From positions 60,001 through 92,000 of the forward strand of contig NZ_CP064923.1 in assembly GCF_018336915.1 (NCBI RefSeq): a stretch of 32,000 bases of DNA, read 5' to 3'. The DNA is from Acaryochloris marina S15. GTDB lineage: Bacteria > Cyanobacteriota > Cyanobacteriia > Thermosynechococcales > Thermosynechococcaceae. The notes under the pieces are model-generated. The model saw only the letters and a program-made list of their open reading frames with translations. It was not told where the DNA came from and made no database searches. Of the stretch, positions 1-12,820 are shown in pieces. Within the stretch, counting starts at the first letter, position 1. Every line of letters starts with the position of its first letter. The position numbers and the translations under genes were made by a program.

Positions 1-707
1 GCCAATCCGAATTTGTGCGCGTGCCCTATGCCAATGGAACCCTATTCAAACTGCCTGACAGCTTTACGTCGGGTTCAGAAGACCACAAAGCGCTACCGCT
101 GGCAGATAATTTTGCAACTGGATATCATGGCGCCCTTAACTCAAATATTCTCCCTGGCGAAACAGTTGTTGTTATCGGTGACGGAGCGGTGGGACAGAGT
201 GCTGTGATGGCAGCAGCAAAGCTCTTTAATCCTGAGCAGGTTATCCATGTGGGCCGGTACGATAGCCGACTGGAGTTTTCCAAGCAAAAAAGTGGCGCGA
301 CCCATACTGTAAATGGCAAAACCCAAGACCCAATCGAGTATGTGAAGAGCTTGACTAATGGTTACGGCGCCATGTCGATTATTGACACCGTTGGTAATAA
401 AGGATCGATTTCGCAAGCCATGGCGATGGCCCATGCAGGCGGTAAATTGAGCGTGCTTGGGTTTGGGCATCTTTATGAACCTGTAGATGCCCCCTACTCT
501 GATGCTCTATTTAGAAACCTGACTATTCATACAGGCGTCGTGAATGTCGCCGCCTATATGAGGACGCTGCTTCCGATCGTCGAAAACGGGCAGATTGATC
601 CCAGTGTCATCTTTACGGATACCTTGCCACTTGCAGAGGCTAAGCAAGGCTATGACTTAATGATGGGTCGGTCGGCCGGTACAGTCAAAGTTGCGCTTAA
701 GCCCTAA
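1..707 (+). CDS. Zn-dependent alcohol dehydrogenase (MDR) family protein, C-terminal part; the 5' end lies outside the window
   Basis: Frame 3 is open from base 3 (QSEFVRVPYANG...). Rossmann motif VVVIGDGAVGQSAV and an MDR-type C-terminus. Stop at 705-707. Confidence 0.8.
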   Translation, partial: QSEFVRVPYANGTLFKLPDSFTSGSEDHKALPLADNFATGYHGALNSNILPGETVVVIGDGAVGQSAVMAAAKLFNPEQVIHVGRYDSRLEFSKQKSGATHTVNGKTQDPIEYVKSLTNGYGAMSIIDTVGNKGSISQAMAMAHAGGKLSVLGFGHLYEPVDAPYSDALFRNLTIHTGVVNVAAYMRTLLPIVENGQIDPSVIFTDTLPLAEAKQGYDLMMGRSAGTVKVALKP

Positions 708-722
708 TTCGCAGCCAACAGG

Positions 723-1022
723 TTGTCGATGAGTCCAGAAGTGAGAAGTCTTTTGGTTGTTTACTTTAAAGACTTTTCGCTCTGGGAGTTGTGTCAGCAG
801 ACCATGATTGACAGATTCCAGTGTATGAAACAACAAATTTTACACACGCACAAACGCGGACAGGCAGAAGGTACCATGCGAGACGATATCTCAGCTGAGG
901 AACTGGCTGACTTTCTGATCAATAGCTATGAAGGTGCATTACTGAGAATGCAGGTGGAGTAGTCTGTTAAGCCTATTGGACAACTGAGTTCACTCATACG
1001 TCACTATCTAATGAGGGCTTAG
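723..1022 (+). pseudogene. TetR-family regulator, C-terminal ligand-domain remnant; no HTH, and an in-frame TAG at 960-962
   Basis: SPEVRSLLVVYFKDF...RGQAEGTMRDDISAEELADFLINSYEGALLRMQVE matches the usual TetR C-terminal pattern (G.IR.D.dpE.lA.FL....EGA.L). The similarity continues past the stop (SVKPIGQLSSLIRHYL). The fragment begins only 15 nt after the upstream ADH stop and has no N-terminal DNA-binding domain. Confidence 0.6.
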
Positions 1023-1153
1023 AGCGTTCCTTGAATATAGTCGACTGGGTTTAAGAAACAAGGATGACTTCCTCAAATCTAGTTACACCAGTACTGGTAA
1101 AATTTGGCTCTATTTTCAGACGACCAGTCGTTTTAATGAATTAGAAGTTACTC

Positions 1154-1558
1154 ATGAAAAATACACTGAAATGGCGCATTCACGGTGATGAATTTGAGGA
1201 TGGTAGCAAGATGGCGGACTGGAAAAAGATTGAAAGTAGCGCTTGGCATTTTCAAGTTGAAAGTAGCTATGAGATGACATTCGATATCTACGAACATGAT
1301 GGTCAGTTCTGGAAGCTATATCAGGGGCGCTGGGTTGTAGAAGGGATCGCCGAATATACTTATCGATACGGTGGTCAAGCCTGCCGGATGACCCAGGTGG
1401 CTTACACAAAAAAGGCGAGATCCCCCCACTCTGGCCTGCTTAAACAGCGCGGAGATTTGGAGTGGGTGCGGGTTTACGAAGTAAATGAACGCATTCATAA
1501 CGTTGTGAAGACTGGCCTGCCGAATCCAAAGTACAACGGCAAAACTGTCGCGGCCTAA
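1154..1558 (+). CDS. hypothetical protein (134 aa), no family recognised
   Basis: ATG-initiated ORF in the same orientation as its neighbours. No motif I can name. Confidence 0.45.
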   Translation: MKNTLKWRIHGDEFEDGSKMADWKKIESSAWHFQVESSYEMTFDIYEHDGQFWKLYQGRWVVEGIAEYTYRYGGQACRMTQVAYTKKARSPHSGLLKQRGDLEWVRVYEVNERIHNVVKTGLPNPKYNGKTVAA

Positions 1559-1601
1559 ATGGAATTGAAGGCAGTGTTTGGCAAAATCGAGGAGGTGCGC
1601 T

Positions 1602-2336
1602 GTGACAAAACCCATTTGTTTGATTACTGGGGTAGGAGACGGGACGGGAAGTGAGATCGCTCGCAAATTTTCCCAAGGAGGATACCGGGTCGCAATGATA
1701 GCCCGTAATCGAGATCGCCTCCAAATGCTCGAACGAGAACTGCCGCAATCCAAAGCTTATGCTTGTGATATTGGAGATTTAGAGACCCTACTCTCCACCC
1801 TAAAGAAAATTTGCTCAGAGATGGGACATCCTTCTGTCTTGATCCATAATGCTGTTAGCGCTACCTTCGGAAGGTTTCTAGAAGCCGATCCTGAAGATTT
1901 AGAACGCAACTTTCGAGTGAATACAACATCATTGCTTTACCTGGCTCGGGAACTCTCACCATCTATGATTGCAGCCGGCAATGGTGCAATTGTGGTCACG
2001 GGAAATACCGCTGCCTTCAGAGGCATTCCCAGCTATGCCCTATTCGCACCGACCAAGGCTGCACAGCGGGTACTATCGCAAGCGCTTGCCCGTGATTTGG
2101 GGCCAAGGGGTGTTCATGTCGCCTATGTGACCATTGATGCCGCGATCGCTACTCCCTGGTCCAAAAACTTGCCCATTGAAGGGCTCAACATTGGACTATT
2201 GAATCAACAAGAGCGACCCGAAGATTTTTTCTGTCAACCCATTGATATTGCAGAAGAGGTGTTTCATGTGGCCCATCAACCAAGATCAGCTTGGTCTTTT
2301 GATGTGGAAATTCGACCGTTTGGGGAAAAGTGGTAG
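1602..2336 (+). CDS. short-chain dehydrogenase/reductase (SDR) family oxidoreductase
   Basis: TGVGDGTGSEIA (TGxxxGxG) and YALFAPTKAA (YxxxK). GTG at 1602 lies 6 nt after GAGGAGG (1589-1595). The ORF-track start at 1578 is a TTG extension. Confidence 0.85.
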   Translation: MTKPICLITGVGDGTGSEIARKFSQGGYRVAMIARNRDRLQMLERELPQSKAYACDIGDLETLLSTLKKICSEMGHPSVLIHNAVSATFGRFLEADPEDLERNFRVNTTSLLYLARELSPSMIAAGNGAIVVTGNTAAFRGIPSYALFAPTKAAQRVLSQALARDLGPRGVHVAYVTIDAAIATPWSKNLPIEGLNIGLLNQQERPEDFFCQPIDIAEEVFHVAHQPRSAWSFDVEIRPFGEKW

Positions 2337-2390
2337 TTGCCGAGATACTAACAATCTTCCCTTTTGGATCACTTTTCAAATCATTGGCTT

Positions 2391-2436
2391 GCATTTTTTG
2401 GAAACTTGCCTTAGGCTACATACATGTAGATAAGCC
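2391..2436 (+). promoter_or_regulatory. promoter/operator-like repeat, copy R0, containing the near-perfect palindrome CTACATACATGTAG (2416-2429)
   Basis: GCATTTTTTGGAAACTTGCCTTAGGCTACATACATGTAGATAAGCC. It shares the T-run, CTTAG and the CTACATACAT core with R1 and R2. It lies directly 5' of the TetR N-terminal remnant. Confidence 0.5.
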
Positions 2437-2531
2437 ATGAAGGTGTTGCGAACAACACAGTAAGCGACACAAAAACAAAGATCTTAGATGTATTGGAGCG
2501 CTTGACCCAAGCCAAAGGGTTCAATAGCTGA
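2430..2531 (+). pseudogene. TetR-family regulator, N-terminal remnant (about 30 codons, no start codon, ends at TGA 2529-2531)
   Basis: The translation ...DTKTKILDVLERLTQAKGFNS* matches the conserved start of the TetR HTH domain (K.KILD.A..LF...GF). It is bounded by TAG 2427-2429 upstream and is truncated before helices 2 and 3. Confidence 0.5.
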
Positions 2532-2546
2532 CAAATTTTAGAGTTA

Positions 2547-2585
2547 CATTTTTTTGATTTGTTTATCTACATACATATAGGTCAG
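2547..2585 (+). promoter_or_regulatory. promoter/operator-like repeat, copy R1 (T-run, -35 TTGATT 2554-2559, core CTACATACATATAG 2567-2580, -10-like TATAGG 2576-2581)
   Basis: 31/36 identity to R2. 16-nt spacer between the -35-like and -10-like hexamers. 66 nt upstream of the intact NTF2-like gene. Confidence 0.55.
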
Positions 2586-2650
2586 TTTCGGCATATACTT
2601 TATTAGACCGTGATTTTGACCCCCTACCCAAACTCAAGGAGACTAAAACA

Positions 2651-3070
2651 ATGTCAACTGAAACTACACTCAACGTAACCCCCAAAACAGCCGCTGACGA
2701 AGCGCATAGCTTTGCAGAATACAAAGCTGTTGAAGCCGCTTTACAGCCTTATATTGAGTCCGCCAAAACAGGTGACGGCGCGCTTTGCCGGACGGCCTTT
2801 TATGACCACGCTCATATTGTTGGCTCAGTACACGGCACTTTCTATGATTTGGATGCTGACACGTTCCAAGGCGCGGTGAATGAAACAGGCGCATCCCCAG
2901 ACGTTCAGTCTCACATTTCCTGGATTGATATTTCTGGACCTGCCGCATCAGCAAAGGTTGAATTTCTCAATTGGGCTGGTTTCCGTTATACCGATTTCTT
3001 TGTCCTCTATAAGCAGGATGGTCAGTGGAAAATCAGCGGCAAGGTCTACGACTCTCACGCCCAAAATTAA
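2651..3070 (+). CDS. NTF2-like (SnoaL / putative lumazine-binding type) protein, intact copy
   Basis: 139 aa. C-terminus AKVEFLNWAGFRYTDFFVLYKQDGQWKISGKVYDSH is typical of the NTF2-like lumazine-binding-2 type fold. AGGAG lies upstream of the ATG. Confidence 0.7.
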   Translation: MSTETTLNVTPKTAADEAHSFAEYKAVEAALQPYIESAKTGDGALCRTAFYDHAHIVGSVHGTFYDLDADTFQGAVNETGASPDVQSHISWIDISGPAASAKVEFLNWAGFRYTDFFVLYKQDGQWKISGKVYDSHAQN

Positions 3071-3158
3071 TCATGTATGCACAGGCACTGGTAAGTGACT
3101 GCACGCTTTGCCTGTGTAGGTTTCGTCTTAAATAGAATTTCAACAACAGGAGGAAAAT

Positions 3159-3593
3159 ATGTCAGCGTCTGTACCGCCCTCAATTGCACCCAAAAGAATT
3201 CTCTATACAATGCTTCGGGTCAGCGATCTGGATAGATCGATTGCGTTCTATCACAATATGCTTGGCATGTCCGAGTTGGGACGTGAAACCTTTCCCGATG
3301 CCGAATTTACCGCTGTCTTTATGGGATACGGAAATCGAAAAACCGATGCGGTCATAGAGATAACCTATAACTGGGACAAGCGTAGCTACGAGCATGGTAC
3401 AGCCTACGGAAATCTCTCTCTTGCCGTAGACGATGTCTATGCATTGACAGCTTATCTCGAAGAGAACGGTGTGAAGGTCTTGCGCCCCGCAGGAGAAGTA
3501 CCAATGGTGTCAACTGAAACAGGTGAGAAGCACACGTTAGCATTTATTGCTGACCCCGATGGTTACCGCATTGAACTCATGCAAACTGCTTGA
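3159..3593 (+). CDS. gloA: lactoylglutathione lyase (glyoxalase I)
   Basis: ILYTMLRVSDLDRSIAFYHNMLGM...IEITYNWD...YEHGTAYGNLSLAVDD...AFIADPDGYRIELMQ. VOC-fold GloA pattern. AGGAGGA RBS. Confidence 0.85.
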   Translation: MSASVPPSIAPKRILYTMLRVSDLDRSIAFYHNMLGMSELGRETFPDAEFTAVFMGYGNRKTDAVIEITYNWDKRSYEHGTAYGNLSLAVDDVYALTAYLEENGVKVLRPAGEVPMVSTETGEKHTLAFIADPDGYRIELMQTA

Positions 3594-3657
3594 CTTTTAC
3601 CCAGATTTTCAACCATTCAAAAGATAAAAATTACCCAATCTAAAAAGGAAAAAGAAC

Positions 3658-4119
3658 ATGACTTCTTTGACCAGAACAGTTACTGCTGAAGCCTTTGAAT
3701 CAGTGGCATCTGGACAACTCGGCTTTACGAATATGGTCGATTACGGCATTACATTGCCAGAGCTTGCTTCCGGCACAACGCCCCCGCCGCAAGGCGCCCG
3801 TTTTGACTTAACCCTTGAGGGGCAACTTACAGGCCCGATTACAGGCAAGATGATTGCTACGGACTATATTAATGTGCGTGCTGACGGCCGATTTGAACTC
3901 AACATGTTTGGGCAAATCACCACCACAGATGGCGCACAGATTTCATTTGAAGGCCATGGGGTATCGGTCCATAAATCTGACGGGACTGAAGGCGTACGTA
4001 TGTCTGTAAAGCTAGTGACTCAATCCAGTGAGTATGCATGGGTAAACGGCGTTACTTTTATCGCTGAAGGGATTGTTGACTCGGCAGCTAACACGTTAGC
4101 AATGTCTCTACTCAGATAA
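3658..4119 (+). CDS. DUF3237-like beta-barrel protein (hypothetical)
   Basis: The pattern G.RF.L.LEG.LTGP..GK...DY...RADGR..L......TTDGA.I...G...EYAWVNGVTFIAEG resembles the DUF3237/UPF0311 family. Confidence 0.5.
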   Translation: MTSLTRTVTAEAFESVASGQLGFTNMVDYGITLPELASGTTPPPQGARFDLTLEGQLTGPITGKMIATDYINVRADGRFELNMFGQITTTDGAQISFEGHGVSVHKSDGTEGVRMSVKLVTQSSEYAWVNGVTFIAEGIVDSAANTLAMSLLR

Positions 4120-4163
4120 GAAAACGTACTGCTGAACGGTGGAGAGACATCTCACGCCAGCCA

Positions 4164-4205
4164 ACTTTTTTTTGACTTAGCTATCAACATACATATAGGT
4201 CAGCC
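4164..4205 (+). promoter_or_regulatory. promoter/operator-like repeat, copy R2 (T8 run, -35 TTGACT 4172-4177, core CAACATACATATAG 4185-4198, -10-like TATAGG 4194-4199)
   Basis: TTTTTTGACTTAGCTATCAACATACATATAGGTCAG. The geometry matches R1. It lies upstream of the peroxiredoxin-like gene. Confidence 0.55.
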
Positions 4206-4353
4206 AAGGTTGTTGTCAAGCCGCGACCTCAAACTGCCCAATTCTCGAAGCAGGGGTAGACAACAATCAATTGTTCGATTCCCTTTTTCAATTTACTGCG
4301 CTGATTTTTTATCAGCACTTGACCACACTATTTATCAATTTGGAGACATCACA

Positions 4354-4908
4354 ATGACTGTAACGACAACTACACCAGCAACAACTTCCGCTATTCGTTT
4401 AGTTCCTGGCAACAACGTCCCTGCGTTGACCATTGATACGCTATCTGGCAATGCTTGGAATCTTGCGGCTCAAACCCCTCGTAACTACACGATGGTGGTC
4501 TTCTATCGGGGATTGCACTGCCCCCTCTGTGCTGAGTACTTAAAGCAGCTGAACAGTAAGCTCAGTCAGTTTCACGATCTCGGTATTGAAGTGATTGCCA
4601 TTAGTGGTGACACTCGCGAGAAAGCTGCTAATTCATCTGAAACCTGGGGTGTAAAAGATTTGACACTGGGCTATGGCCTCACCCGTGAAGCGATGCAGCA
4701 GTGGGGGCTTTATGTCTCCAAGGGTGCATTTGACTATGAGCCAGCCTATTTCAATGAACCAGGACTCTTTTTGATTGGCCCTGACGGCGTGCTTTTCTTC
4801 GCGAGTATTAATAACGCGCCCTATGGTCGTACTGACCTAGATGCACTGCTCGGCGGTATGGACTTTGTCTTGAACAACAACTACCCCGTGCGTGGTACTG
4901 AGGTCTAA
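4354..4908 (+). CDS. thioredoxin-fold peroxiredoxin-like (AhpC/TSA family) protein
   Basis: VVFYRGLHCPLCAEYLKQL carries a CxxC-type redox motif in an AhpC/TSA-like context. ATG 4354 is preceded by GGAGA. The 48-codon upstream extension in the ORF track shows no homology and covers the promoter-like repeat. Confidence 0.7.
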   Translation: MTVTTTTPATTSAIRLVPGNNVPALTIDTLSGNAWNLAAQTPRNYTMVVFYRGLHCPLCAEYLKQLNSKLSQFHDLGIEVIAISGDTREKAANSSETWGVKDLTLGYGLTREAMQQWGLYVSKGAFDYEPAYFNEPGLFLIGPDGVLFFASINNAPYGRTDLDALLGGMDFVLNNNYPVRGTEV

Positions 4909-4956
4909 AAGAAAGAAAGCTCTTCCCCTATTCCAACAATACAACGGAGAAAAATC

Positions 4957-5208
4957 ATGCCTTTTGTAAATGTTCGCACAACCAAAGGAATGCTGACTAA
5001 GGATCAGAAACAAGAGCTTCAAGAGCGTCTGAACGCCTTAATGGTTGAGATTGAAGGGGGTGGTGACCCAACCTTCAAAGACAAGGTCTGGATCATGATT
5101 GAGGAGACCGAGCCTGAGGACTGGAATATCGGAGGGGTCACGCTAACCCCTGACATCATCCAAGAACTCAAACGCCAACAGGCTCCCAAAAGTAAAGGAA
5201 AATCCTAG
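4957..5208 (+). CDS. 4-oxalocrotonate tautomerase family protein
   Basis: 83 aa starting MPFVNVRT (catalytic Pro1 after Met removal), with a beta-alpha-beta tautomerase-like pattern. GGAGAAAAATC precedes the ATG. Confidence 0.7.
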   Translation: MPFVNVRTTKGMLTKDQKQELQERLNALMVEIEGGGDPTFKDKVWIMIEETEPEDWNIGGVTLTPDIIQELKRQQAPKSKGKS

Positions 5209-5221
5209 ACTGCACGCTTAA

Positions 5222-5263
5222 GGATGTGCGATCGCAAAGTATGGGGTAGCGCTTCTACCCCAT
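5222..5263 (+). promoter_or_regulatory. degenerate copy (RA) of the same element, with hairpin GGGGTAG-CGCTT-CTACCCC (5243-5261)
   Basis: GTATGGGGTAGCG aligns with ATATAGGTCAGCC of R2. The stretch 5222-5280 is 48/59 identical, ungapped, to 7523-7581. Confidence 0.4.
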
Positions 5264-5413
5264 GTGATTAATTTTGAAATTTCTGGATCTGCCGCTGTTG
5301 CAAAGGTTGAATTTATTAACTGGGGCGGCTTCCGAGACTTCTCTGTCCTCTACAAGCACAACGGAGAATGGAAAATCAGCGGCCAGGTCTTCGATGCTCA
5401 TACCCAAAACTAA
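5264..5413 (+). pseudogene. NTF2-like gene 3' remnant (copy A, about 49 codons)
   Basis: VINFEISGSAAVAKVEFINWGGFRDFSVLYKHNGEWKISGQVFDAHTQN* aligns with residues 91-139 of the intact copy at 2651-3070. The N-terminal two thirds are absent. Confidence 0.75.
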
Positions 5414-5562
5414 GTTTTCTCTATCCACTGCCTCTAAGTCGCGCAGTCTAAACCGTAGATAACATTGACTTTGTATTGGTGCCAGACGCGTAAACGAGCA
5501 TTCCAAATAGTCAAGCGCACTCGAAATAACAACCTAACTCAACACCCTAACCAGGAAAAAAG

Positions 5563-6255
5563 ATGACTTACGACAACGTGTTTAAAAAATGGCCTGCACA
5601 GCACCCTGAGAGAATTCAGCTGTATTCTCTCGGAACGCCCAACGGTCAAAAAATTTCCATTGCGCTAGAAGAAATGGCCCTGCCCTATGAGGCCCATCGC
5701 ATTGAGATTATGAAAGATGACCAGTTCACCGATGAGTTCATTGCCATTAACCCCAATTCCAAAATCCCAGCCATCATCGATCCAAATGGGCCAAACAATG
5801 AACCTTTTGCTGTCTTCGAGTCCGGTGCCATTTTGATGTATCTGGCAGAGAAGTCAGGGAAATTTCTCCCCACCGATCCGGCAGCCCGCAGTGAGTGTTT
5901 GCAATGGTTGTTTTTCCAAATGGGAGGTGTCGGCCCCATGTTTGGACAGTTTGGACATTTCCACACGTTTGCCAAGGAAAAAGTTCCCTATGCCATTGAG
6001 CGCTATCGCAACGAAGCTCGACGGTTGTTAACCGTCCTGGATAAGCAACTATCAGAAAAACCTTTTCTCATAGGAGACGCGTATTCCATTGCAGATATGG
6101 CGACATTTCCTTGGGTAGGCACATTGGATTGGGCTTACAAAGCAGCTGAATCGTTGCAGCTTCACCAAGACTTTCCGAATGTTATGACCTGGTATGAGCG
6201 CTGTCGGCAACGGCCTGCGGCGGTTCGTGGACTAGCCGTAACGAAAATCAATTAA
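5563..6255 (+). CDS. glutathione S-transferase, YfcG/YghU-like (Nu-class-like)
   Basis: LYSLGTPNGQKISIALEEMALPYE...INPNSKIPAIIDPNG...FESGAILMYLAEKSGKFLP closely follows the E. coli YfcG-type N-terminal pattern. Confidence 0.8.
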   Translation: MTYDNVFKKWPAQHPERIQLYSLGTPNGQKISIALEEMALPYEAHRIEIMKDDQFTDEFIAINPNSKIPAIIDPNGPNNEPFAVFESGAILMYLAEKSGKFLPTDPAARSECLQWLFFQMGGVGPMFGQFGHFHTFAKEKVPYAIERYRNEARRLLTVLDKQLSEKPFLIGDAYSIADMATFPWVGTLDWAYKAAESLQLHQDFPNVMTWYERCRQRPAAVRGLAVTKIN

Positions 6256-6389
6256 CAACGAACTGATTGAGCACGCTGTAAATTCGCTCTAATCAATCAT
6301 CGGATGGCACTCCTAATCCTTGCAGAGCTTTGACTCTATACTCAAGCTCGAATCAATCACTTGTTCATTTATTTAACCCACGGACTCCC

Positions 6390-7502
6390 ATGACTCAAAC
6401 GAACGTTCCTCATCTTCTTAGTTCTCTAGAAACAAAAGATCTAACCTTTCGAAATCGGATTGTGATGGCCCCGCTGACTCGTTCTCGATCGGGTGCGGAA
6501 AGAATACCAAACGCGCTGATGGCTGAGTACTATGCTCAGCGGGCTGGAGCGGGCCTCATCATTACAGAAGGTACTACCATCTCACCCCAGGCGAACGGTT
6601 GGCTCAATTCTCCCGGTATCTATACAGAAGCCCAAACCCAAGCCTGGAAGCAGGTTGTAGATGCGGTACATGCCCAAAATGGGTTGATCTTTTTGCAGCT
6701 TTGGCACACGGGTCGAGCGTCTCATCGTGACTTTCAAGTGAATAATCAACTTCCAGTGGGGCCATCAGCAGTCGGATTAGAAGGCTCAGAGGTACATACT
6801 CCCAAGGGGAAACAACTCTACGAGACCCCGAGGGCATTAGAGACTGCCGAAATCCCTAACGTGATCGAGGACTACCGACAAGCCGCTGCTAACGCTAAGC
6901 AAGCGGGCTTTGATGGCGTAGAGATCCATGGGGCCAATGGCTATTTGATTGACGAATTTCTACAGTCTAAGACCAATCACCGCACAGATCTGTATGGCGG
7001 TAGTTTAGAGAATCGCTTTCGGTTCTTAAAAGAAATCACTGAAGCGGTTCTGACTGTTTGGCCTGCTAGTCGTGTCGGAGTCAGGCTCTCGCCCAATGGC
7101 GTCTTCAACGATATGGGATCACCCGATTATCGGGAGACCTTTACTTATGTTGCTGAGCAGCTTAATACTTACAACCTAGGCTATTTGCATATCCTTGACG
7201 GTTTAGCGTTTGGCTTTCATGAGCTTGGAGAGCCAATGACACTGGCTGAAATTAGAAAGGTTTACAGCAATACACTGATGGGGAACTGTGGGTACGATCG
7301 CAATTCAGCAGAGTCTGCAATTGTATCTGGCGATGCGGCTCTGATTGCCTTTGGCCGCTCTTATATCAGCAATCCAGATCTTGTGGATCGTTTTGCCCAT
7401 AATTGGGAGCTGAATGCTGACTCTGATCCATCTACCTGGTACTCCTTTGAGGCTGAAGGATATACCGACTTCCCGACCTATCAAGTCTCTCAGGTTGTTT
7501 GA
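6390..7502 (+). CDS. Old Yellow Enzyme family NAD(P)H:flavin oxidoreductase (alkene / N-ethylmaleimide reductase-like)
   Basis: RNRIVMAPLTRSR, LWHTGRASH and HGANGYLIDEFL are OYE hallmarks. ATG at 6390; the track's 6330 start is a TTG extension. Confidence 0.85.
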   Translation: MTQTNVPHLLSSLETKDLTFRNRIVMAPLTRSRSGAERIPNALMAEYYAQRAGAGLIITEGTTISPQANGWLNSPGIYTEAQTQAWKQVVDAVHAQNGLIFLQLWHTGRASHRDFQVNNQLPVGPSAVGLEGSEVHTPKGKQLYETPRALETAEIPNVIEDYRQAAANAKQAGFDGVEIHGANGYLIDEFLQSKTNHRTDLYGGSLENRFRFLKEITEAVLTVWPASRVGVRLSPNGVFNDMGSPDYRETFTYVAEQLNTYNLGYLHILDGLAFGFHELGEPMTLAEIRKVYSNTLMGNCGYDRNSAESAIVSGDAALIAFGRSYISNPDLVDRFAHNWELNADSDPSTWYSFEAEGYTDFPTYQVSQVV

Positions 7503-7513
7503 CTTGAGCCATA

Positions 7514-7564
7514 GCATTTTTTGGATGTGCTTTAGCAACGTGTTGGGTAGCCCTTCTACCTAAC
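7514..7564 (+). promoter_or_regulatory. degenerate copy (RB) of the same element, with hairpin GGTAG-CCCTT-CTACC (7546-7560)
   Basis: GCATTTTTTGGATGTGCTTTAGCAACGTGTTGGGTAGCCC. The 5' part matches R0 and R3 (GCATTTTTT), and ATGTGCTTT matches the segment just 3' of R3. It lacks the CTACAT core. Confidence 0.4.
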
Positions 7565-7594
7565 GTGATTAATTCTGAAATAAAGAGATTAGCA

Positions 7595-8566
7595 ATGGCA
7601 AATATGCAAGCAGCTGTGTTGACGGCATTGGGTGGTCCCGAAGGGTTTGAGATCCAGCAGATCCCCAAACCTGTACCAAAAGCCAATCAGATCTTAGTCC
7701 GCGTCTATGCAACGTCTATCAATCCTGTTGATTATCAAACCCGTCGGGGTGACTATAAAGACTATGTGCAACTCCCAGCAGTTATTGGTCTTGATGTGTC
7801 TGGGGTTGTTGAGGCCGTGGGAGAAACCGTAACCGCCTTTAAGCCAGGAGATGAAGTCTATTACGCGCCTAGAATTTTTGAAGATGCGGGTAGCTATGCT
7901 CAATACAATGTTGTTGATGAGAGCCTGGTTGCGATTAAGCCCAAAAATCTATCCCATACTGAAGCAGCGTGTTTTCCCATAGCAGGTGGAACCGCTTGGG
8001 AGTCCCTGTTTACTAGGGCAAATCTCCAGGTAGGTGAATCTGTTTTGATTCATGCGGGCGCAGGTGGCGTTGGGTCTTTAGCCATCCAATTAGCGAAAGC
8101 GATAGGTGCCTACGTGTTCACAACCTGTAGCCCTAGAAATCATGATTTGGTTACGAAACTGGGCGCGGACCATGTGATTGACTATACAACGGAAGACTAT
8201 GTAGAAGTCATTCAGCGAGAAACAGACAATCAAGGCGTTGATGTCGTCTTTGATACGATTGGCGGCAAGACGATTCAACAAAGTTTCGAGATTCTTCGCC
8301 CTTATGGTCGCCTTGTTAGCATCGTCGACATTGAAACGCCGCAATCTTTGCTCGCCGCTTGGGATCGAAATCTATCTGTCCATTTTGTTTTTAACCCAGT
8401 TAATTCAGCGAAGCTAGATGCCCTAAGGCAGCTTATTGAACGCGAACAGCTAAAACCAGTTATTGACTCAATCATGCCGTGGCAACAGGTGAGTCAAGCC
8501 ATCCAACGATTAGAACAAGGCGGAACAACAGGAAAGATTGTGCTGGATTTTGCTGATGATAATTAG
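7595..8566 (+). CDS. NADPH:quinone oxidoreductase-like zinc-binding dehydrogenase (MDR)
   Basis: MQAAVL...GGPEGFEIQQIPKP...VRVYATSINPVDY...HAGAGGVGSLAIQLAK. The start is ATG 7595 or 7604. The in-frame GTG 7565 extension is derived from an NTF2 remnant. Confidence 0.8.
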   Translation: MANMQAAVLTALGGPEGFEIQQIPKPVPKANQILVRVYATSINPVDYQTRRGDYKDYVQLPAVIGLDVSGVVEAVGETVTAFKPGDEVYYAPRIFEDAGSYAQYNVVDESLVAIKPKNLSHTEAACFPIAGGTAWESLFTRANLQVGESVLIHAGAGGVGSLAIQLAKAIGAYVFTTCSPRNHDLVTKLGADHVIDYTTEDYVEVIQRETDNQGVDVVFDTIGGKTIQQSFEILRPYGRLVSIVDIETPQSLLAAWDRNLSVHFVFNPVNSAKLDALRQLIEREQLKPVIDSIMPWQQVSQAIQRLEQGGTTGKIVLDFADDN

Positions 8567-8650
8567 CTTAACAATGCCTGCTGCAACCCTGCCTGAACTT
8601 ATACGAGCACGGCATTTTCTATATTTGTCAAAATAGAAGGTACAAAAGTC

Positions 8651-9115
8651 ATGAAAATCAGGCTACTCGTCCTAGCAGGCCTATTGTTTGCAGCTATGCT
8701 TTTGCCCATCACTGCGAGCAATGCCCATACTGTAAAGAGGTTGAAAGATCGCGACGCTGTAGCGATTGAAACAGTAATTTTCGATTATTTTGAAGGAAAC
8801 GGTACAGCAGATCGAGATCGGCTTGGCGCTGCTTTCCATGAAGACCTCGCCGTAATGGTAGGTATCATTAAGTCAGAGAATGGAACTCTCGAACGTCGTG
8901 CCTGGCACGATATGCCCGCTCTGCTAGATGCATGGGCAGCGGTCGAGAATCCTCCTGGTACGGGACGGGACGGCGAAGTTCTGCACATTCAAACAGTCGA
9001 TGGACGGATCGCAACTGCCCTCTTTCGCTACACAGATGAATTTTATGATGCCTTTACATTGCTAAAGCACGATGGCCAATGGAAGATCGCTAGCAAGGCA
9101 TTCATCGAACAATAA
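8651..9115 (+). CDS. NTF2-like protein with N-terminal signal peptide (distant paralogue of 2651-3070)
   Basis: MKIRLLVLAGLLFAAMLLPITASNA is a signal-like N-terminus. The C-terminus is FTLLKHDGQWKIASKAF. Confidence 0.6.
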   Translation: MKIRLLVLAGLLFAAMLLPITASNAHTVKRLKDRDAVAIETVIFDYFEGNGTADRDRLGAAFHEDLAVMVGIIKSENGTLERRAWHDMPALLDAWAAVENPPGTGRDGEVLHIQTVDGRIATALFRYTDEFYDAFTLLKHDGQWKIASKAFIEQ

Positions 9116-9152
9116 ATTTCAATCGAATAGAAAATGTAATTGGAGAATGATC

Positions 9153-9896
9153 ATGTCTCAAAATATTGATGGGAAAGTCGTTGTTATTACTGGTGCCAGC
9201 AGTGGCCTAGGAGAATCAACAGCTCGTCATTTAGCCTCGTTGGGCGCGAAGGTCGTGTTGGGAGCACGCCGCACAGAGAAATTAGAACGCATCACCCAAG
9301 AGATCCGCGACAGTGGGGGACAGGCTGAATTTTTGACCACAGATGTTACCGTTGCTAGCGATTTAAAGGCACTCGTTGAGAAAGCGATCGCAGCTTTCGG
9401 TCAAGTCGATGTCATTATCAACAATGCTGGATTGATGGCGATTGCTCCCATGTCAGAGACGAAAACTGACGAATGGGATCGCATGATTGATATCAACATT
9501 AAAGGCGTTCTATACGGTATTGCAGCGGCCTTACCCATCTTTGAAAGACAGGGCAGTGGACACTTTATCAACATTTCTTCTGTTGCTGGAGTGAAGGTAT
9601 TTAGTCCCGGTGGTGCGGTCTACAGTGGCACTAAATTTGCTGTGAGAGCAATTTCTGAAGGATTAAGGCATGAAGTGGGTGGCAAGATCAGAACAACCAC
9701 TATTGAGCCAGGTGCTGTAGATTCTGATCTAAAACACGGTAGTTCACATCAGGAAAGCTCGGACTTTGTGAAAGATTTTTATCAGATTGCAATTCCTGCT
9801 GACTCTGTTGCGCGTGCTATTGCCTACGCCATTGAACAACCTGCAGATATAGATATCAATGAGCTTGTCTTACGGCCAACCGTACAAGATTTCTAA
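9153..9896 (+). CDS. SDR family oxidoreductase
   Basis: VVVITGASSGLGE, NNAG and YSGTKFAV motifs. GGAG lies 7 nt upstream of ATG 9153. The 9072 start would overlap the preceding gene. Confidence 0.85.
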   Translation: MSQNIDGKVVVITGASSGLGESTARHLASLGAKVVLGARRTEKLERITQEIRDSGGQAEFLTTDVTVASDLKALVEKAIAAFGQVDVIINNAGLMAIAPMSETKTDEWDRMIDINIKGVLYGIAAALPIFERQGSGHFINISSVAGVKVFSPGGAVYSGTKFAVRAISEGLRHEVGGKIRTTTIEPGAVDSDLKHGSSHQESSDFVKDFYQIAIPADSVARAIAYAIEQPADIDINELVLRPTVQDF

Positions 9897-9935
9897 ACCG
9901 GTTCTAGTTTGAGAACTAGAAGTAGATGACAGTTT

Positions 9936-9978
9936 GCATTTTTTTAGCGACTTTATCTACATCTGCAGGTTGGCTCAG
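9936..9978 (+). promoter_or_regulatory. promoter/operator-like repeat, copy R3 (diverged)
   Basis: GCATTTTTTTAGCGACTTTATCTACATCTGCAGGTTGGCTCAG. It shares CATTTTTTT and TTTATCTACAT with R1. It is followed by NTF2 remnant C and the YahK-like ADH. Confidence 0.45.
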
Positions 9979-10011
9979 TATGTGCTTTCTCAAAAGCCAA
10001 CCTAAAAAACT

Positions 10012-10113
10012 AACTGGGATAGCTTCCACTTCATAGACTTCTTTGTTCTCTACAAGCACTGCAGCCAGCGGGAAATCAGTGGTAAGGCCTACGAGTCTCA
10101 CACCCAAAACTAA
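10012..10113 (+). pseudogene. NTF2-like gene 3' remnant (copy C, about 33 codons)
   Basis: NWDSFHFIDFFVLYKHCSQREISGKAYESHTQN* aligns with NWAGFRYTDFFVLYKQDGQWKISGKVYDSHAQN* of the intact copy. An in-frame TAA sits just upstream at 10003-10005. Confidence 0.7.
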
Positions 10114-10148
10114 GTTTTATCTATCTACTATTTCTAATAGGAGAACCC

Positions 10149-11171
10149 ATGACGACAGCATCCATGATTAGAGCTTATGCTGCTGCCGAGGTCGGCGGTA
10201 ATCTAACGCCATTTGAGTACAAGCCAGATCCACTAAAGGATACAGATGTTGAGATCGATGTTGAGTATTGTGGCCTTTGCCACAGCGATCTGAGTATGTT
10301 GGACAACGAATGGGGAATTACCCAATATCCCTTTGTTCCTGGTCATGAAGTGATTGGACGAGTGGCTAAGCTCGGTTCTGCGGTTAAATCTCTTCACGTT
10401 GGCCAGCAAGTGGGCTTGGGATGGTTTTCCAGTTCTTGTATGACCTGTGAATGGTGTCTTTCTGGGAATCACAATCTTTGCCCCAGCCGAGAAGAAACCA
10501 TCGTTAATCGACATGGCGGTTTTGCGGATAAGGTGCGCGCCCATGAAGTATGGACTGTTCCTCTCCCTGAAGGGATTGATGCGGTCAAAGCAGGTCCCCT
10601 ATTCTGTGGCGGCATTACTGTTTTTAATCCCCTTATTCAGTTGGGAATACAGCCAACAGACAAAGTTGGGGTCATTGGCATTGGTGGATTGGGGCATATG
10701 GCACTAAAGTTCTTGCGTGCTTGGGGGTGTGAAGTCACCGCTTTTTCATCGAGTCCTGAAAAAACGGCTGAAGCAAAAGCGATGGGGGCGCATTATGTTG
10801 TCAACTCACGTGAGCCTGACGCACTGAAAGCGGTCGCCAATTCCTTTGATGTGATTCTTTCTACCGTCAGCGCCGATTTAGACTGGAGCATTTATATCGA
10901 GGCCCTGCGTCCTCAAGGCAAGATCCACTTTGTTGGCATCCCACCCTCCCCTTTGAGTACCTCCTTATTTTCGATTATTGATGCACAGCGGTCGGTGTCA
11001 GGATCACCGTTGGGCAGTCCGGCAACCGTGCAGAAAATGCTCAATTTTTCTCAACGTCACAGCATTGAACCCGTTATTGAAACGTTTCCCTTTAGCCAAG
11101 TCAATGAAGCCATAGACCGGCTCCGTCACGGGAAGCCACGTTATCGGATTGTATTAGTACCAGACTCATAG
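10149..11171 (+). CDS. NAD(P)-dependent alcohol/aldehyde reductase, cinnamyl-alcohol-dehydrogenase (YahK/AdhC-like) subfamily
   Basis: CGLCHSDLSMLDNEWG...PFVPGHEVIGRV, structural zinc cysteines CMTCEWCLSGNHNLC, and GIGGLGHMALKF. AGGAGAA RBS. Confidence 0.85.
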   Translation: MTTASMIRAYAAAEVGGNLTPFEYKPDPLKDTDVEIDVEYCGLCHSDLSMLDNEWGITQYPFVPGHEVIGRVAKLGSAVKSLHVGQQVGLGWFSSSCMTCEWCLSGNHNLCPSREETIVNRHGGFADKVRAHEVWTVPLPEGIDAVKAGPLFCGGITVFNPLIQLGIQPTDKVGVIGIGGLGHMALKFLRAWGCEVTAFSSSPEKTAEAKAMGAHYVVNSREPDALKAVANSFDVILSTVSADLDWSIYIEALRPQGKIHFVGIPPSPLSTSLFSIIDAQRSVSGSPLGSPATVQKMLNFSQRHSIEPVIETFPFSQVNEAIDRLRHGKPRYRIVLVPDS

Positions 11172-11215
11172 CGTTGGATGGAGTACAGGACTAGGACGAC
11201 CTAAAAATGCTATTT

Positions 11216-12820
11216 CTATGGACTATCGTCGTTAGGAGTCGGGGCGGTAGGGGTAGGCGGCGGCACCGGAATCACAACGGGAGATTGTATCGGCGATGGC
11301 TCTGGACTAGGGCTGAGAGTTGGTTCTTCTGGCTGTGTGGGGTCTGGGCTGGGACTGGGGTCCGGCTCTAATGTAGGTTCAGGTGGTTCCGTGGGGGTGG
11401 GAGTGGGTGCAGGGCGCTCCAAGTCTGCAATTTTGCGTTTGGCTGCGAAGTAGATGGGATCGGCTCGCCTATCCCAGTAAGGATTTTGGGGCAATTTAAA
11501 CGCTAAGTCTCGGGCAACATACCAGCGTTTACCATCAAAGGCTGTTTTAGCACGATTGAATAGGTCTTGTTGTTGTTGCCATGTCGTTTGCCAGGTCTGG
11601 ACTTGGGTTTGGGCGGCTTCAGCACTGTCGCTGTTGCTGGGGATTTGGTTTGCGATCGCAATTGCTGCATCTAAATCCCCAGACTGTCGCGCTTCTTGCT
11701 GAGCCTGCTCTAGGAGCGTCGCACCATTATCTACATTGGCGACCGGTTGGAGAAACGGGAATAGTTCATCCGTTACTCCCCAGTAGGTGAGGCCAACCAT
11801 GCCTAAACCCATGACCAAGGCCATAGCGCCGAAGCCGAACACCCAGGGGGCACAGCCTGAAGATTTCGCGACCGGCGGGGATGGGCGCTGCTGTGGACGG
11901 GGGGGGGTGGGTGTGGCAACGACTTGGGTGGGTTCTATGGCTGATATTGCTGGTTCTACGGGAGGTGTGAAGGGTTTAGGAGAGGGCTGTACGGAGGTTT
12001 GATCGATGGTCTGATGGAGTGCTTGTAAAGCATCAGCAGCAGTTTGGTAGCGCAATTTAAAATAGGGGCGCACCATTTGAGTAAGGACCTGGGCCAATTC
12101 ATCACTCACCGCCGCCTGATCTCGCCAAACTAGCTCGCCGTCTACATCTTCTTGGAATTGGGAGGGGGGTCTGCCCGTCAGGGCCTGAATACCGATAATT
12201 CCGAGAGAATACAGGTCGCTATTGGGACGCGGCTTCCCTTGGCTTTGCTCACTGGCCATATATCCGGGGGTGCCCACGACCACGGTGATATTGGTTTGTG
12301 GATTAGTGACTAGGCCTTGATTGCGCACCTGTTTGACCGACCCAAAGTCGACCAAGACCAGCTTCTGATCGGCTCGGCGACGGATAATATTCTCAGGTTT
12401 AATATCGCGATGAATCACCCCTTGGCCATGAATAAATTCCAAGACTTCGAGCACTTCGGACAGCAGCGATTGCACCTGCGACTCTGGCCATTGTTCTCCC
12501 GCCGCCAGTTCATCCGTGAGGGGAGCCCCATCAATCAGTTCTTGGACGAGGAAAAAGTCTTGATCTTGCTCAAAGAAGGCGAGTAGCCGGGGAATTTGAT
12601 GGTGGTGGCCTAACTGTTCTAAGGTTTCCGCTTCACTGCGGAATAGGCGACGAGCCACTTCCAAAAACTCTGGATCGCTGCTAGCGGGCTGCAGCAATTT
12701 AACCACACAAGACGGATTGCCGGGGCGTCTTGTATCCTCAGCAATATAGGTTTGTCCAAAGCCTCCTTCCCCGAGAGACTGTACGATGCGATAACGCCCA
12801 TCCAACGTTTGCCCAATCAT
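11216..12820 (-). CDS. membrane-anchored Ser/Thr protein kinase (Hanks type) with an extracytoplasmic domain and a Pro-rich tail
   Basis: GEGGFGQTY, VVKLL, HRDIKPENI, DFGSVK and GTPGYMASE. A TM segment (PWVFGFGAMALVMGLGMVGLTYWGV) is followed by about 150 aa and a P/T/S/E-rich C-terminus. Confidence 0.85.
   Translation of the reverse strand: MIGQTLDGRYRIVQSLGEGGFGQTYIAEDTRRPGNPSCVVKLLQPASSDPEFLEVARRLFRSEAETLEQLGHHHQIPRLLAFFEQDQDFFLVQELIDGAPLTDELAAGEQWPESQVQSLLSEVLEVLEFIHGQGVIHRDIKPENIIRRRADQKLVLVDFGSVKQVRNQGLVTNPQTNITVVVGTPGYMASEQSQGKPRPNSDLYSLGIIGIQALTGRPPSQFQEDVDGELVWRDQAAVSDELAQVLTQMVRPYFKLRYQTAADALQALHQTIDQTSVQPSPKPFTPPVEPAISAIEPTQVVATPTPPRPQQRPSPPVAKSSGCAPWVFGFGAMALVMGLGMVGLTYWGVTDELFPFLQPVANVDNGATLLEQAQQEARQSGDLDAAIAIANQIPSNSDSAEAAQTQVQTWQTTWQQQQDLFNRAKTAFDGKRWYVARDLAFKLPQNPYWDRRADPIYFAAKRKIADLERPAPTPTPTEPPEPTLEPDPSPSPDPTQPEEPTLSPSPEPSPIQSPVVIPVPPPTPTAPTPNDDSP

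Follow-up and report, generated by a model that had tools for sequence, protein, structure and literature searches.

What are the short repeated elements that lie between the genes of a redox-enzyme array in the cyanobacterium Acaryochloris marina S15, and would a single regulator read them all? The array occupies the first part of a stretch of 32,000 nucleotides (contig NZ_CP064923.1, positions 60,001 to 92,000; hereafter the window), and a first-pass annotation had listed six such elements, R0, R1, R2, RA, RB and R3, as diverged copies of one promoter/operator-like element. The claim of one six-membered family does not stand: three good copies (R0, R1 and R2) and a decayed one (R3) belong together, and RA and RB represent another element. 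The claimed placement holds for all six, which lie on the plus strand, in intergenic DNA and 5' of a gene or gene remnant. With a probability of about 70%, R0 to R2 and the decayed R3 would be operator/promoter modules of a TetR repressor that controls a strain-variable detoxification island. What the sequences show directly is the elements themselves, how well they are conserved and that they are linked to tetR; that a repressor binds them, that they act as promoters, what induces the system and in which order the rearrangements arose are inferred.

A dyad linked to a TetR-family gene

The dyad CTACATACATGTAG occurs without mismatch in R0 (2416-2429, no strand assigned), where it forms the predicted operator O-R0 with perfect 6-bp arms (CTACAT/ATGTAG) and a 2-bp centre, in agreement with the 14-bp core proposed before. 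R1 carries it with one mismatch (CTACATACATATAG, 2567-2580), R2 with two and a degenerate left arm (CAACATACATATAG, 4185-4198); together with a conserved GGTCAG, the predicted operators O-R1 and O-R2, likewise unstranded, span 2567-2585 and 4185-4203. When up to two mismatches were allowed, four matches at three sites were obtained versus 0.12 expected in 32 kb, a number reached by 0 of 100 shuffles, and no further dyad appeared elsewhere in the window even at three mismatches. The close likeness of R1 and R2 was also borne out (85% identity over 40 nt). A palindrome longer than 14 bp was rejected, the extension not being symmetric.

Directly behind R0, frame 3 reads ...VSDTKTKILDVLERLTQAKGFNS*, the N-terminus of a TetR protein. 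This tetR remnant of 23 codons plus stop (2460-2531, plus strand; (V)SDTKTKILDVLERLTQAKGFNS*) was delimited by translation and by alignment with the full tetR of two of the loci compared from other genomes (numbered L001, L017 and so on): L017, a syntenic contig of a related cyanobacterial metagenome-assembled genome (MAG), and L050, from another Acaryochloris strain. Both loci keep a full tetR of 177 codons, with an R0-type site ahead of it and an R1-type site behind it. The three-way alignment indicates that the window lacks about 465 bp of the gene, from about codon 22 to the last codon, and that the start codon of the remnant has changed from GTG to GTA. The R0 and R1 operators themselves are identical between strains (L001, L050). 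In L017 a second R0/R1 pair, 134 nt apart (at 984 and 1118), represents an independent tetR deletion.

The dyad was sought more widely with the DNA pattern CWACATACATRTAGRTMAG in 185,579 genomes, one genome per species. Forty-six matches in 44 stretches were found, where about 70 were expected by chance under a uniform base model. Most of them look random; 13 do not. Seven cyanobacterial contigs account for eight of these and four contigs of marine alphaproteobacteria for five, and each adjoins a gene for a 177-aa TetR, the NTF2-like gene downstream of it, or both. Every one of these loci has a site of the 14-nt core 16-18 nt before the tetR start, a distance seen for the dyad in eight cyanobacterial loci, and a site about 20 nt after the stop.

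A test independent of the motif used four TetR homologues picked by protein similarity alone, from Moorena (82% identity), a delta-proteobacterial MAG (68%), an acidobacterial MAG (59%) and Ruegeria (55%). In the first three, the dyad is found with at most two mismatches at both ends of the gene, no more than about 35 nt ahead of the start codon and some 20 nt beyond the stop codon. For any given 100-nt region, a site of this kind would arise by chance with a probability below 1e-3. The Ruegeria locus (L057) has no site after the tetR stop; upstream it shows a diverged dyad-like sequence beside the start codon and a site with two mismatches about 170 nt away, adjoining a divergent CMD gene. 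All 34 sites listed in the cyanobacterial loci are intergenic. A gene start lies 16-221 nt downstream of each, except for two reverse-strand readings of near-symmetric sites; two more sites lie at a contig end. The tetR remnant after R0 and the linkage in orthologous loci thus support the earlier proposal that the dyad would be a TetR-family operator. A full-text search of the literature for the operator sequence returned only an unrelated zebrafish paper.

The genes behind the module in different strains encode Lumazine_bd_2/NTF2-like proteins, an AhpC-type peroxiredoxin, a short-chain dehydrogenase (SDR), a zinc-dependent alcohol dehydrogenase (Zn-ADH), a flavodoxin-like reductase and DJ-1/PfpI. 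One shared regulon and repeated capture of the module by different enzymes had been offered as alternatives to explain so many related promoters; both would hold. An Old Yellow Enzyme-type (OYE) flavin reductase also follows the operator in Roseovarius albus (L009) and in the acidobacterial locus (L056). In R. albus the operator lies on both sides of tetR and also heads a divergent operon, which codes for an NTF2-like protein, an NTF2-like protein with signal peptide, a glutathione S-transferase (GST), an OYE and a further GST. All of these families are represented in the window as well, and by eye the NTF2-like proteins look about 60% identical across phyla.

Where, then, would the repressor of S15 be encoded? 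Four Logan assemblies of related strains (L050-L053) have an intact tetR at the array head, and the 177-aa TetR of A. marina has accession WP_212663946.1. In S15, the intact TetR (QUY42796.1) and a TetR fragment of the window (QUY42802.1) are six accessions apart within one record of 5,881,945 bp. L051 and L001, which come from the same sample, were joined to read the gene order upstream of the window: tetR, a flavodoxin-like reductase gene, an R-type site, an NTF2-like gene, CMD, a second TetR gene on the other strand, ADH and the TetR fragment. The six-step gap in S15 agrees with this order and therefore suggests an intact gene for the repressor some 7 kb upstream of R0.

The fragment in question (723-962, plus strand; TetR_C_13, E 2.7e-5) is a chimeric TetR C-terminal pseudogene, 100% identical to an A. 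marina protein. Its residues 2-26 resemble the cognate 177-aa TetR (56%), and its residues 27-84 a second TetR of 196 aa encoded upstream in L001 (67%). The latter gene is intact in that near-identical strain and located just upstream of the window (L001 931-1521, minus strand). It is followed in L001, at 2150-2290, by a different palindrome (ATATGACTGGTCATAT / TAGACGACCGGTCATA) and then by the remnant of a further TetR N-terminus, which is fused to the front of the ADH gene truncated at the window start, an arrangement that suggests a putative second repressor/operator pair in the same island.

Orthologues of the 177-aa TetR combine PF00440 with PF16925/PF21993 (TetR_N plus TetR_C_13), and Cys97 and Cys99, a CxC motif, are invariant in 43 homologues. 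In total, 269 homologues were found at E <= 1e-20, distributed among marine cyanobacteria, Roseobacter-group and other alphaproteobacteria, delta-proteobacteria and Acidobacteriota. The protein reached no NCBIfam equivalog.

Candidate promoter geometry, the decayed R3 and the RA/RB hairpin

The first-pass annotation had placed the dyad between -35 and -10 hexamers. At R0 this is not supported. The candidate -35 is TTGCAT (2389-2394, plus strand), of which TTGCA is invariant in the 10 cyanobacterial R0-type sites, and the candidate -10 is TAGGCT (2412-2417, plus strand), 17 nt after it, with TA..CT conserved; the R0-type sites as a whole (n = 10) read TTGCA(C/T), 17 nt, TA..CT. As the last two bases of the -10 are the first two bases of the operator, the conserved hexamers put the operator over the -10/+1 region. 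The same columns read TTGACT-17-TAATCT in the delta-proteobacterial locus (L055) and TTGACA-17-TATCCT in the acidobacterial one. R0 itself reads TTGCAT-17-TAGGCT, its -10 having the expected A as second and T as sixth base, but it scores below the threshold of our sigma-70 scan.

At R1 and R2 the layout proposed earlier does fit the conserved geometry, although TATAGG/TGTAGG make a poor -10 that lacks the last T. R1 shows a run of 7 T followed by a -35-like TTGATT (2549-2559, plus strand; the most conserved flank columns of the R1-type sites) and R2 a run of 8 T followed by TTGACT (4166-4177, plus strand; R1/R2 repeat comparison), so that the hexamers read TTGATT/TTGACT-16-TATAGG. The consensus of 18 R1-type sites is ataTTTTTTTG.CTca.ttATcTACATACATaTAGGTCAGTT. 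Its conserved parts are the T-run, TTGNCT, the AT that immediately precedes the operator, and GGTCAG, while the 7-nt (once 6-nt) spacer before the operator varies in sequence. This geometry recurs in alpha- and delta-proteobacterial sites. The R1-type module thus fits a putative promoter in which a T-tract lies ahead of the -35 and the -10 falls on TRTAGG or TAGGTC. A more downstream -10 (TAYRCT) was not adopted, being present at several sites only, at variable positions, and absent at R2. A CTGAC...GTCAG inverted repeat around R1-type modules was also set aside: it is absent in proteobacteria and takes in the tetR stop codon, which points to common descent. Titles and abstracts of the papers retrieved mentioned no transcription-start map for the locus.

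R3 (9934-9962, plus strand) is a decayed R1-type module with TTGCAT, a 7-T run, an 11-nt spacing and the left arm CTACAT only. Its description as a copy stands for the left half, 76% identical to R1 over 29 nt and agreeing by eye at 20 of 24 positions with an R1-type site of L013, and fails for the right arm, which is absent. In its place lies an inverted copy (18/19) of SDR coding sequence 9837-9855, found by repeat comparison at 9954-9972 on the plus strand. SDR orthologues share the coding segment, which makes the intergenic sequence the derived member of the two. The loss of the right arm looks like a fold-back or template-switch mutation, which the similar TATCTA(C/T)AT may have nucleated. 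The surrounding region 9825-10015 is strongly structured (fold z-score -4.64).

RA and RB, listed among the promoter copies, have neither the dyad nor the TTGAYT and TATAGG parts. In a six-way alignment, RB has only GCATTTTTTGGA in common with R0 (the left piece of RB, 7514-7525, plus strand) and RA essentially nothing. They form a pair of their own, 81% identical over 59 nt around the hairpin GGGGTAG-N5-CTACCCC. On the plus strand, the RA hairpin (5239-5265; GGGGTAG-CGCTT-CTACCCC with an extended stem) folds at -15.9 kcal/mol (z -3.16), and the RB hairpin (7539-7567), 28 nt before the oxidoreductase start codon, at -12.5 kcal/mol (z -2.48). They were the two best matches of a terminator-like scan of positions 1-11500, with a tail only moderately T-rich. 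In compared loci the hairpin, then GTGATTAATTCTGAAATAAAGAGATTAGCA-ATG, precedes the oxidoreductase gene, always 28 nt from the start codon, and the gene upstream varies: tautomerase (L017, L031), AhpC (L050) or, in the window, OYE. RA is a duplicate of this oxidoreductase-gene leader that retains its upstream side, RB retains its downstream side, and the 2.3-kb block between them (NTF2 remnant, GST, OYE) is absent in L017, L031 and L050. RA and RB are leader copies that flank an inserted block, outside the TetR operator system.

Among five hairpin sequences, 91% of cells are paired and two pairs are changed on both sides, both in RB; covariation in these five sequences is not significant, 90 of 500 shuffles reaching the observed score. 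We suggest with low confidence that the hairpin works as RNA, probably by stabilising the intercistronic transcript or as an attenuator. RA also holds the cyanobacterial HIP1 octamer GCGATCGC (5229-5236). Between the ADH gene that closes the array and the convergent protein-kinase gene, the minus strand of 11193-11213 reads ATAGCATTTTTAGG, which resembles ATAGCATTTTTTGG of the RB left piece.

A repressor model and its rivals

The repressor would belong to an uncharacterised TetR subfamily of 177 aa with an invariant Cys-x-Cys, and its operator would be CTACAT-AC-ATGTAG, also readable as ATCTAC-N6-GTAGAT. R0 would be the autoregulated promoter of the repressor gene itself (TTGCAT-17-TAGGCT), where a bound repressor would block RNA polymerase because the operator covers the -10 end and the start site. 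R1 and R2 would represent a second module (T-run, TTGNCT, 7 nt, operator, GGTCAG) ahead of the NTF2-like and peroxiredoxin genes, and most likely act as repressible internal promoters. R3 would be a dead module, its right arm overwritten by the inverted copy of nearby coding sequence. The tetR between R0 and R1 is a deletion remnant; the active repressor would be supplied by the intact copy at the array head, beyond the window start and some 7 kb upstream of R0. Electrophiles, quinones or oxidants may then modify the conserved cysteines, upon which the repressor would leave the DNA and reductases, glutathione transferase, glyoxalase, peroxiredoxin and tautomerase would be expressed.

Several observations weigh against this model. 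A simple sigma-70 scan calls none of the six elements, R0, R1 and R2 included, and the best -10 candidates at R1 and R2 (TATAGG, TGTAGG, TAGGTC) are those without the conserved last T. Some R1-type sites, though not all, offer a second register with TAYRCT 15 nt downstream of the operator, in which the operator would cover the -35 region. All orthologous R2 sites have a degenerate left arm (CAAC in L050, CGAC in L031, TGAC in L017), and a repressor may thus bind only weakly at R2. In the window the local tetR is a dead remnant, in L017 the gene is frameshifted, and the system may therefore be decaying in some lineages. The intact tetR of S15 is deduced from closely related assemblies and accession order, and the nature of the inducer from gene content and conserved cysteines. 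The L017 frameshift is a 1-2 nt indel at about 4000-4015, either a real pseudogene or an assembly error.

The weakness of the -10 hexamers and the silence of the promoter scan at R1 and R2 also suit the idea that these are operators without promoters of their own, set in one long transcript from R0 or the island head and acting by roadblock or by looping to R0. The same-strand genes with short gaps agree with this, as does the fact that R1-type modules always begin right behind the tetR stop codon. However, the T-run and TTGNCT keep a fixed distance to the operator across phyla while the intervening spacer varies, which fits contacts of RNA polymerase, and R1-type modules also head genes that have no close preceding tetR or array gene (L013 at 468; L054). 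Roadblocks by TetR-type proteins are, moreover, generally weak. We thus regard a single transcript as rather unlikely. The repeats may instead be relics of segmental duplication, functionless here, in an island that is constitutive or otherwise controlled. The deletion of the local tetR, the destruction of R3, the gene remnants and chimeric TetR fragment that show ongoing decay and the frameshift in L017 would all be expected of such relics; on the contrary, R0 and R1 are intact with the same operator in L001 and L050, an intact tetR heads the array in related strains, and operator and tetR are conserved together across four phyla, all of which makes this explanation improbable.

Two further readings deny the repeats a role as local DNA sites. 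As short copies situated at junctions of rearranged segments, they recall a genome-wide dispersed repeat, like a miniature inverted-repeat transposable element or a repetitive extragenic palindromic sequence. Yet no copy lies outside the array in the 32 kb, nor in the 9.9 kb upstream of tetR in L050; each cyanobacterial genome of the scan has its matches on one contig, always at the tetR locus, and no terminal inverted repeats or target duplications were seen. A dispersed repeat is thus hardly credible. That the elements are leader structures or small RNAs would account for the stable hairpins of RA and RB and for the structure around R3, but neither R0 nor R1 folds more stably than shuffled sequence (z -0.46 and +0.11), Rfam gives no match in the whole window, and what is conserved is a DNA dyad with promoter-like hexamers, not paired columns; we consider RNA elements very improbable. 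The model of repressor-controlled operator/promoter modules therefore remains the one that we favour.

The gene array and its relation to known regulators

Genes from 15 to 11171 are all on the plus strand with short gaps between them, and the remainder of the window holds housekeeping and iron-uptake genes unrelated to the array. Identities were assigned with Pfam. The window covers the greater part of the island, and the array as seen here opens with the 3' part of a Zn-ADH gene cut by the window start (15-707; ADH_zinc_N, E 3.6e-19), which is visible in full in L001 (390 aa). After the TetR fragment come a gene for a 134-aa protein of unknown function (1154-1558) and an SDR gene (1578-2336), an order kept in L017 and L050. 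Behind R1 stands a Lumazine_bd_2/NTF2-like gene (2651-3070; E 6.8e-22), the nearest PDB entries of which are titled 'NTF2-like protein of unknown function'. Modules of the R1 type have this gene in conserved first position, and in cyanobacteria, alphaproteobacteria and delta-proteobacteria alike it follows the tetR-operator unit. A glyoxalase-family gene (3159-3593; Glyoxalase, E 5.4e-20) and a DUF3237 gene (3658-4119) come next, a pair that is not at the corresponding place in L017. R2 precedes an AhpC/TSA-type peroxiredoxin gene (4354-4908) and a tautomerase gene (4957-5208). Beyond RA lie a 3' remnant of a Lumazine_bd_2 gene (5274-5413; 80% identical to 2925-2985 and extending into repeat family D1), a GST gene (5563-6255) and the OYE gene (6390-7502; Oxidored_FMN, E 6e-80). 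RB is followed by a Zn-ADH/quinone-oxidoreductase-like gene (7595-8566), a second Lumazine_bd_2/NTF2-like gene with an N-terminal hydrophobic stretch (8651-9115) and an SDR gene (9153-9896), and R3 by a second 3' Lumazine_bd_2 remnant (10029-10113; repeat family D1, 77%) and the last array gene, a Zn-ADH (10149-11171). The protein-kinase gene that follows is convergent, and the array of L050 ends alike.

The 11-mer ACTGCACGCTT occurs after the stop of the first NTF2-like gene (3098-3108), where it opens a small terminator-like hairpin (3099-3119), and again after the tautomerase stop (5209-5219); the pair may be another recombination scar.

Gene content differs among the window, L050, L017, L031, L022 and L013, and each stretch that differs is bounded by an R-type module, by an NTF2-like gene or what is left of one, or by the hairpin. 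The array would have been built by joining several operons, each made of a module, an NTF2-like gene and enzymes, with deletions afterwards. In the acidobacterial MAG (L056 1-1920) the tetR unit adjoins a Tn3-family transposase and a resolvase, and in Ruegeria (L057 4695-5255) a resolvase, which hints at horizontal transfer of the tetR-operator unit. A bolder and tentative idea, which we hold to be unlikely, is that T-run, operator, GGTCAG and NTF2-like gene form a portable cassette: homologous recombination at it would recruit enzymes under one repressor, super-operons would be swapped between strains, and the tetR-operator unit would cross phyla on Tn3-type elements. If true, this would be like integron gene shuffling without integrase. 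An integron cassette array proper was rejected, because no integrase domain was found in the searched open reading frames of at least 60 aa and the repeats lie 5' of genes, tied to tetR.

The system resembles an electrophile regulon of the NemR/AltR kind and brings no new principle of regulation. The NemR operon of Escherichia coli (nemR-nemA-gloA) also has a glyoxalase; derepression of NemR by electrophiles and bleach needs a cysteine, and its operator probably differs in sequence from the dyad described here. NemR is a TetR-family autorepressor that acts via an inverted-repeat operator in its own promoter and is associated with an Old Yellow Enzyme reductase (PMC13178969). The window array is alike in holding both an OYE (6390-7502) and a glyoxalase-family gene (3159-3593), and JGI names some homologues of the 177-aa TetR 'repressor of nem operon'. 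Orthology to NemR was not borne out (PDB 4yze, 25.6 bits, E 1.1e-4, over residues 3-127 only), and the proposed regulon here is much larger, with several operator copies.

AltR, from the allicin-tolerance cluster of Pantoea ananatis, is an autoregulated TetR-family repressor of thiol/redox enzymes, the operator of which (CAATCTAC-N6-GTAGATTG) overlaps the -10; with a second, weaker box it gives the consensus YWAYCWAC-N6-GTWGRTWR (PMC13178969). The sites described here, (T)ATCTAC-ATACAT-GTAGAT(A), have the same CTAC-N6-GTAG frame and flanks. Read against the printed consensus, the left half of R1 (TTATCTAC) and the right half of R0 (GTAGATAA) agree at 8/8 positions and the other halves at 6/8. 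A cysteine near position 100 is essential in AltR, which responds to thiosulfinates and not to NEM (N-ethylmaleimide) or diamide (PMC13178969); here Cys97 and Cys99 are invariant. Neither an NTF2-like first gene nor a T-run module is described for AltR. A Pantoea vagans TetR considered as AltR turned out to be an unrelated protein.

The closest solved relatives over the full length are two structural-genomics TetR proteins, 3on4 and 2g7s (E 9e-27 and 2e-23); 3on4 has the first cysteine too, and the entry names state no function, ligand or operator. With QacR/TetR-style promoters the system would share a sigma-70-type promoter occluded by a TetR-family dimer, but the conserved hexamers of R0-type sites put the dyad over -10/+1 and not in the spacer, whereas a spacer/-10 position is possible at R1 and R2.

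For a widespread and uncharacterised TetR subfamily, the analysis gives a predicted operator, a predicted regulon and candidate sensor residues (Cys97/Cys99), and it suggests that a cyanobacterium with chlorophyll d has a regulon for electrophile/quinone stress. The locus also provides an example of one putative promoter-operator module that stands before different enzymes depending on the strain, with intermediates of gain and decay still visible.

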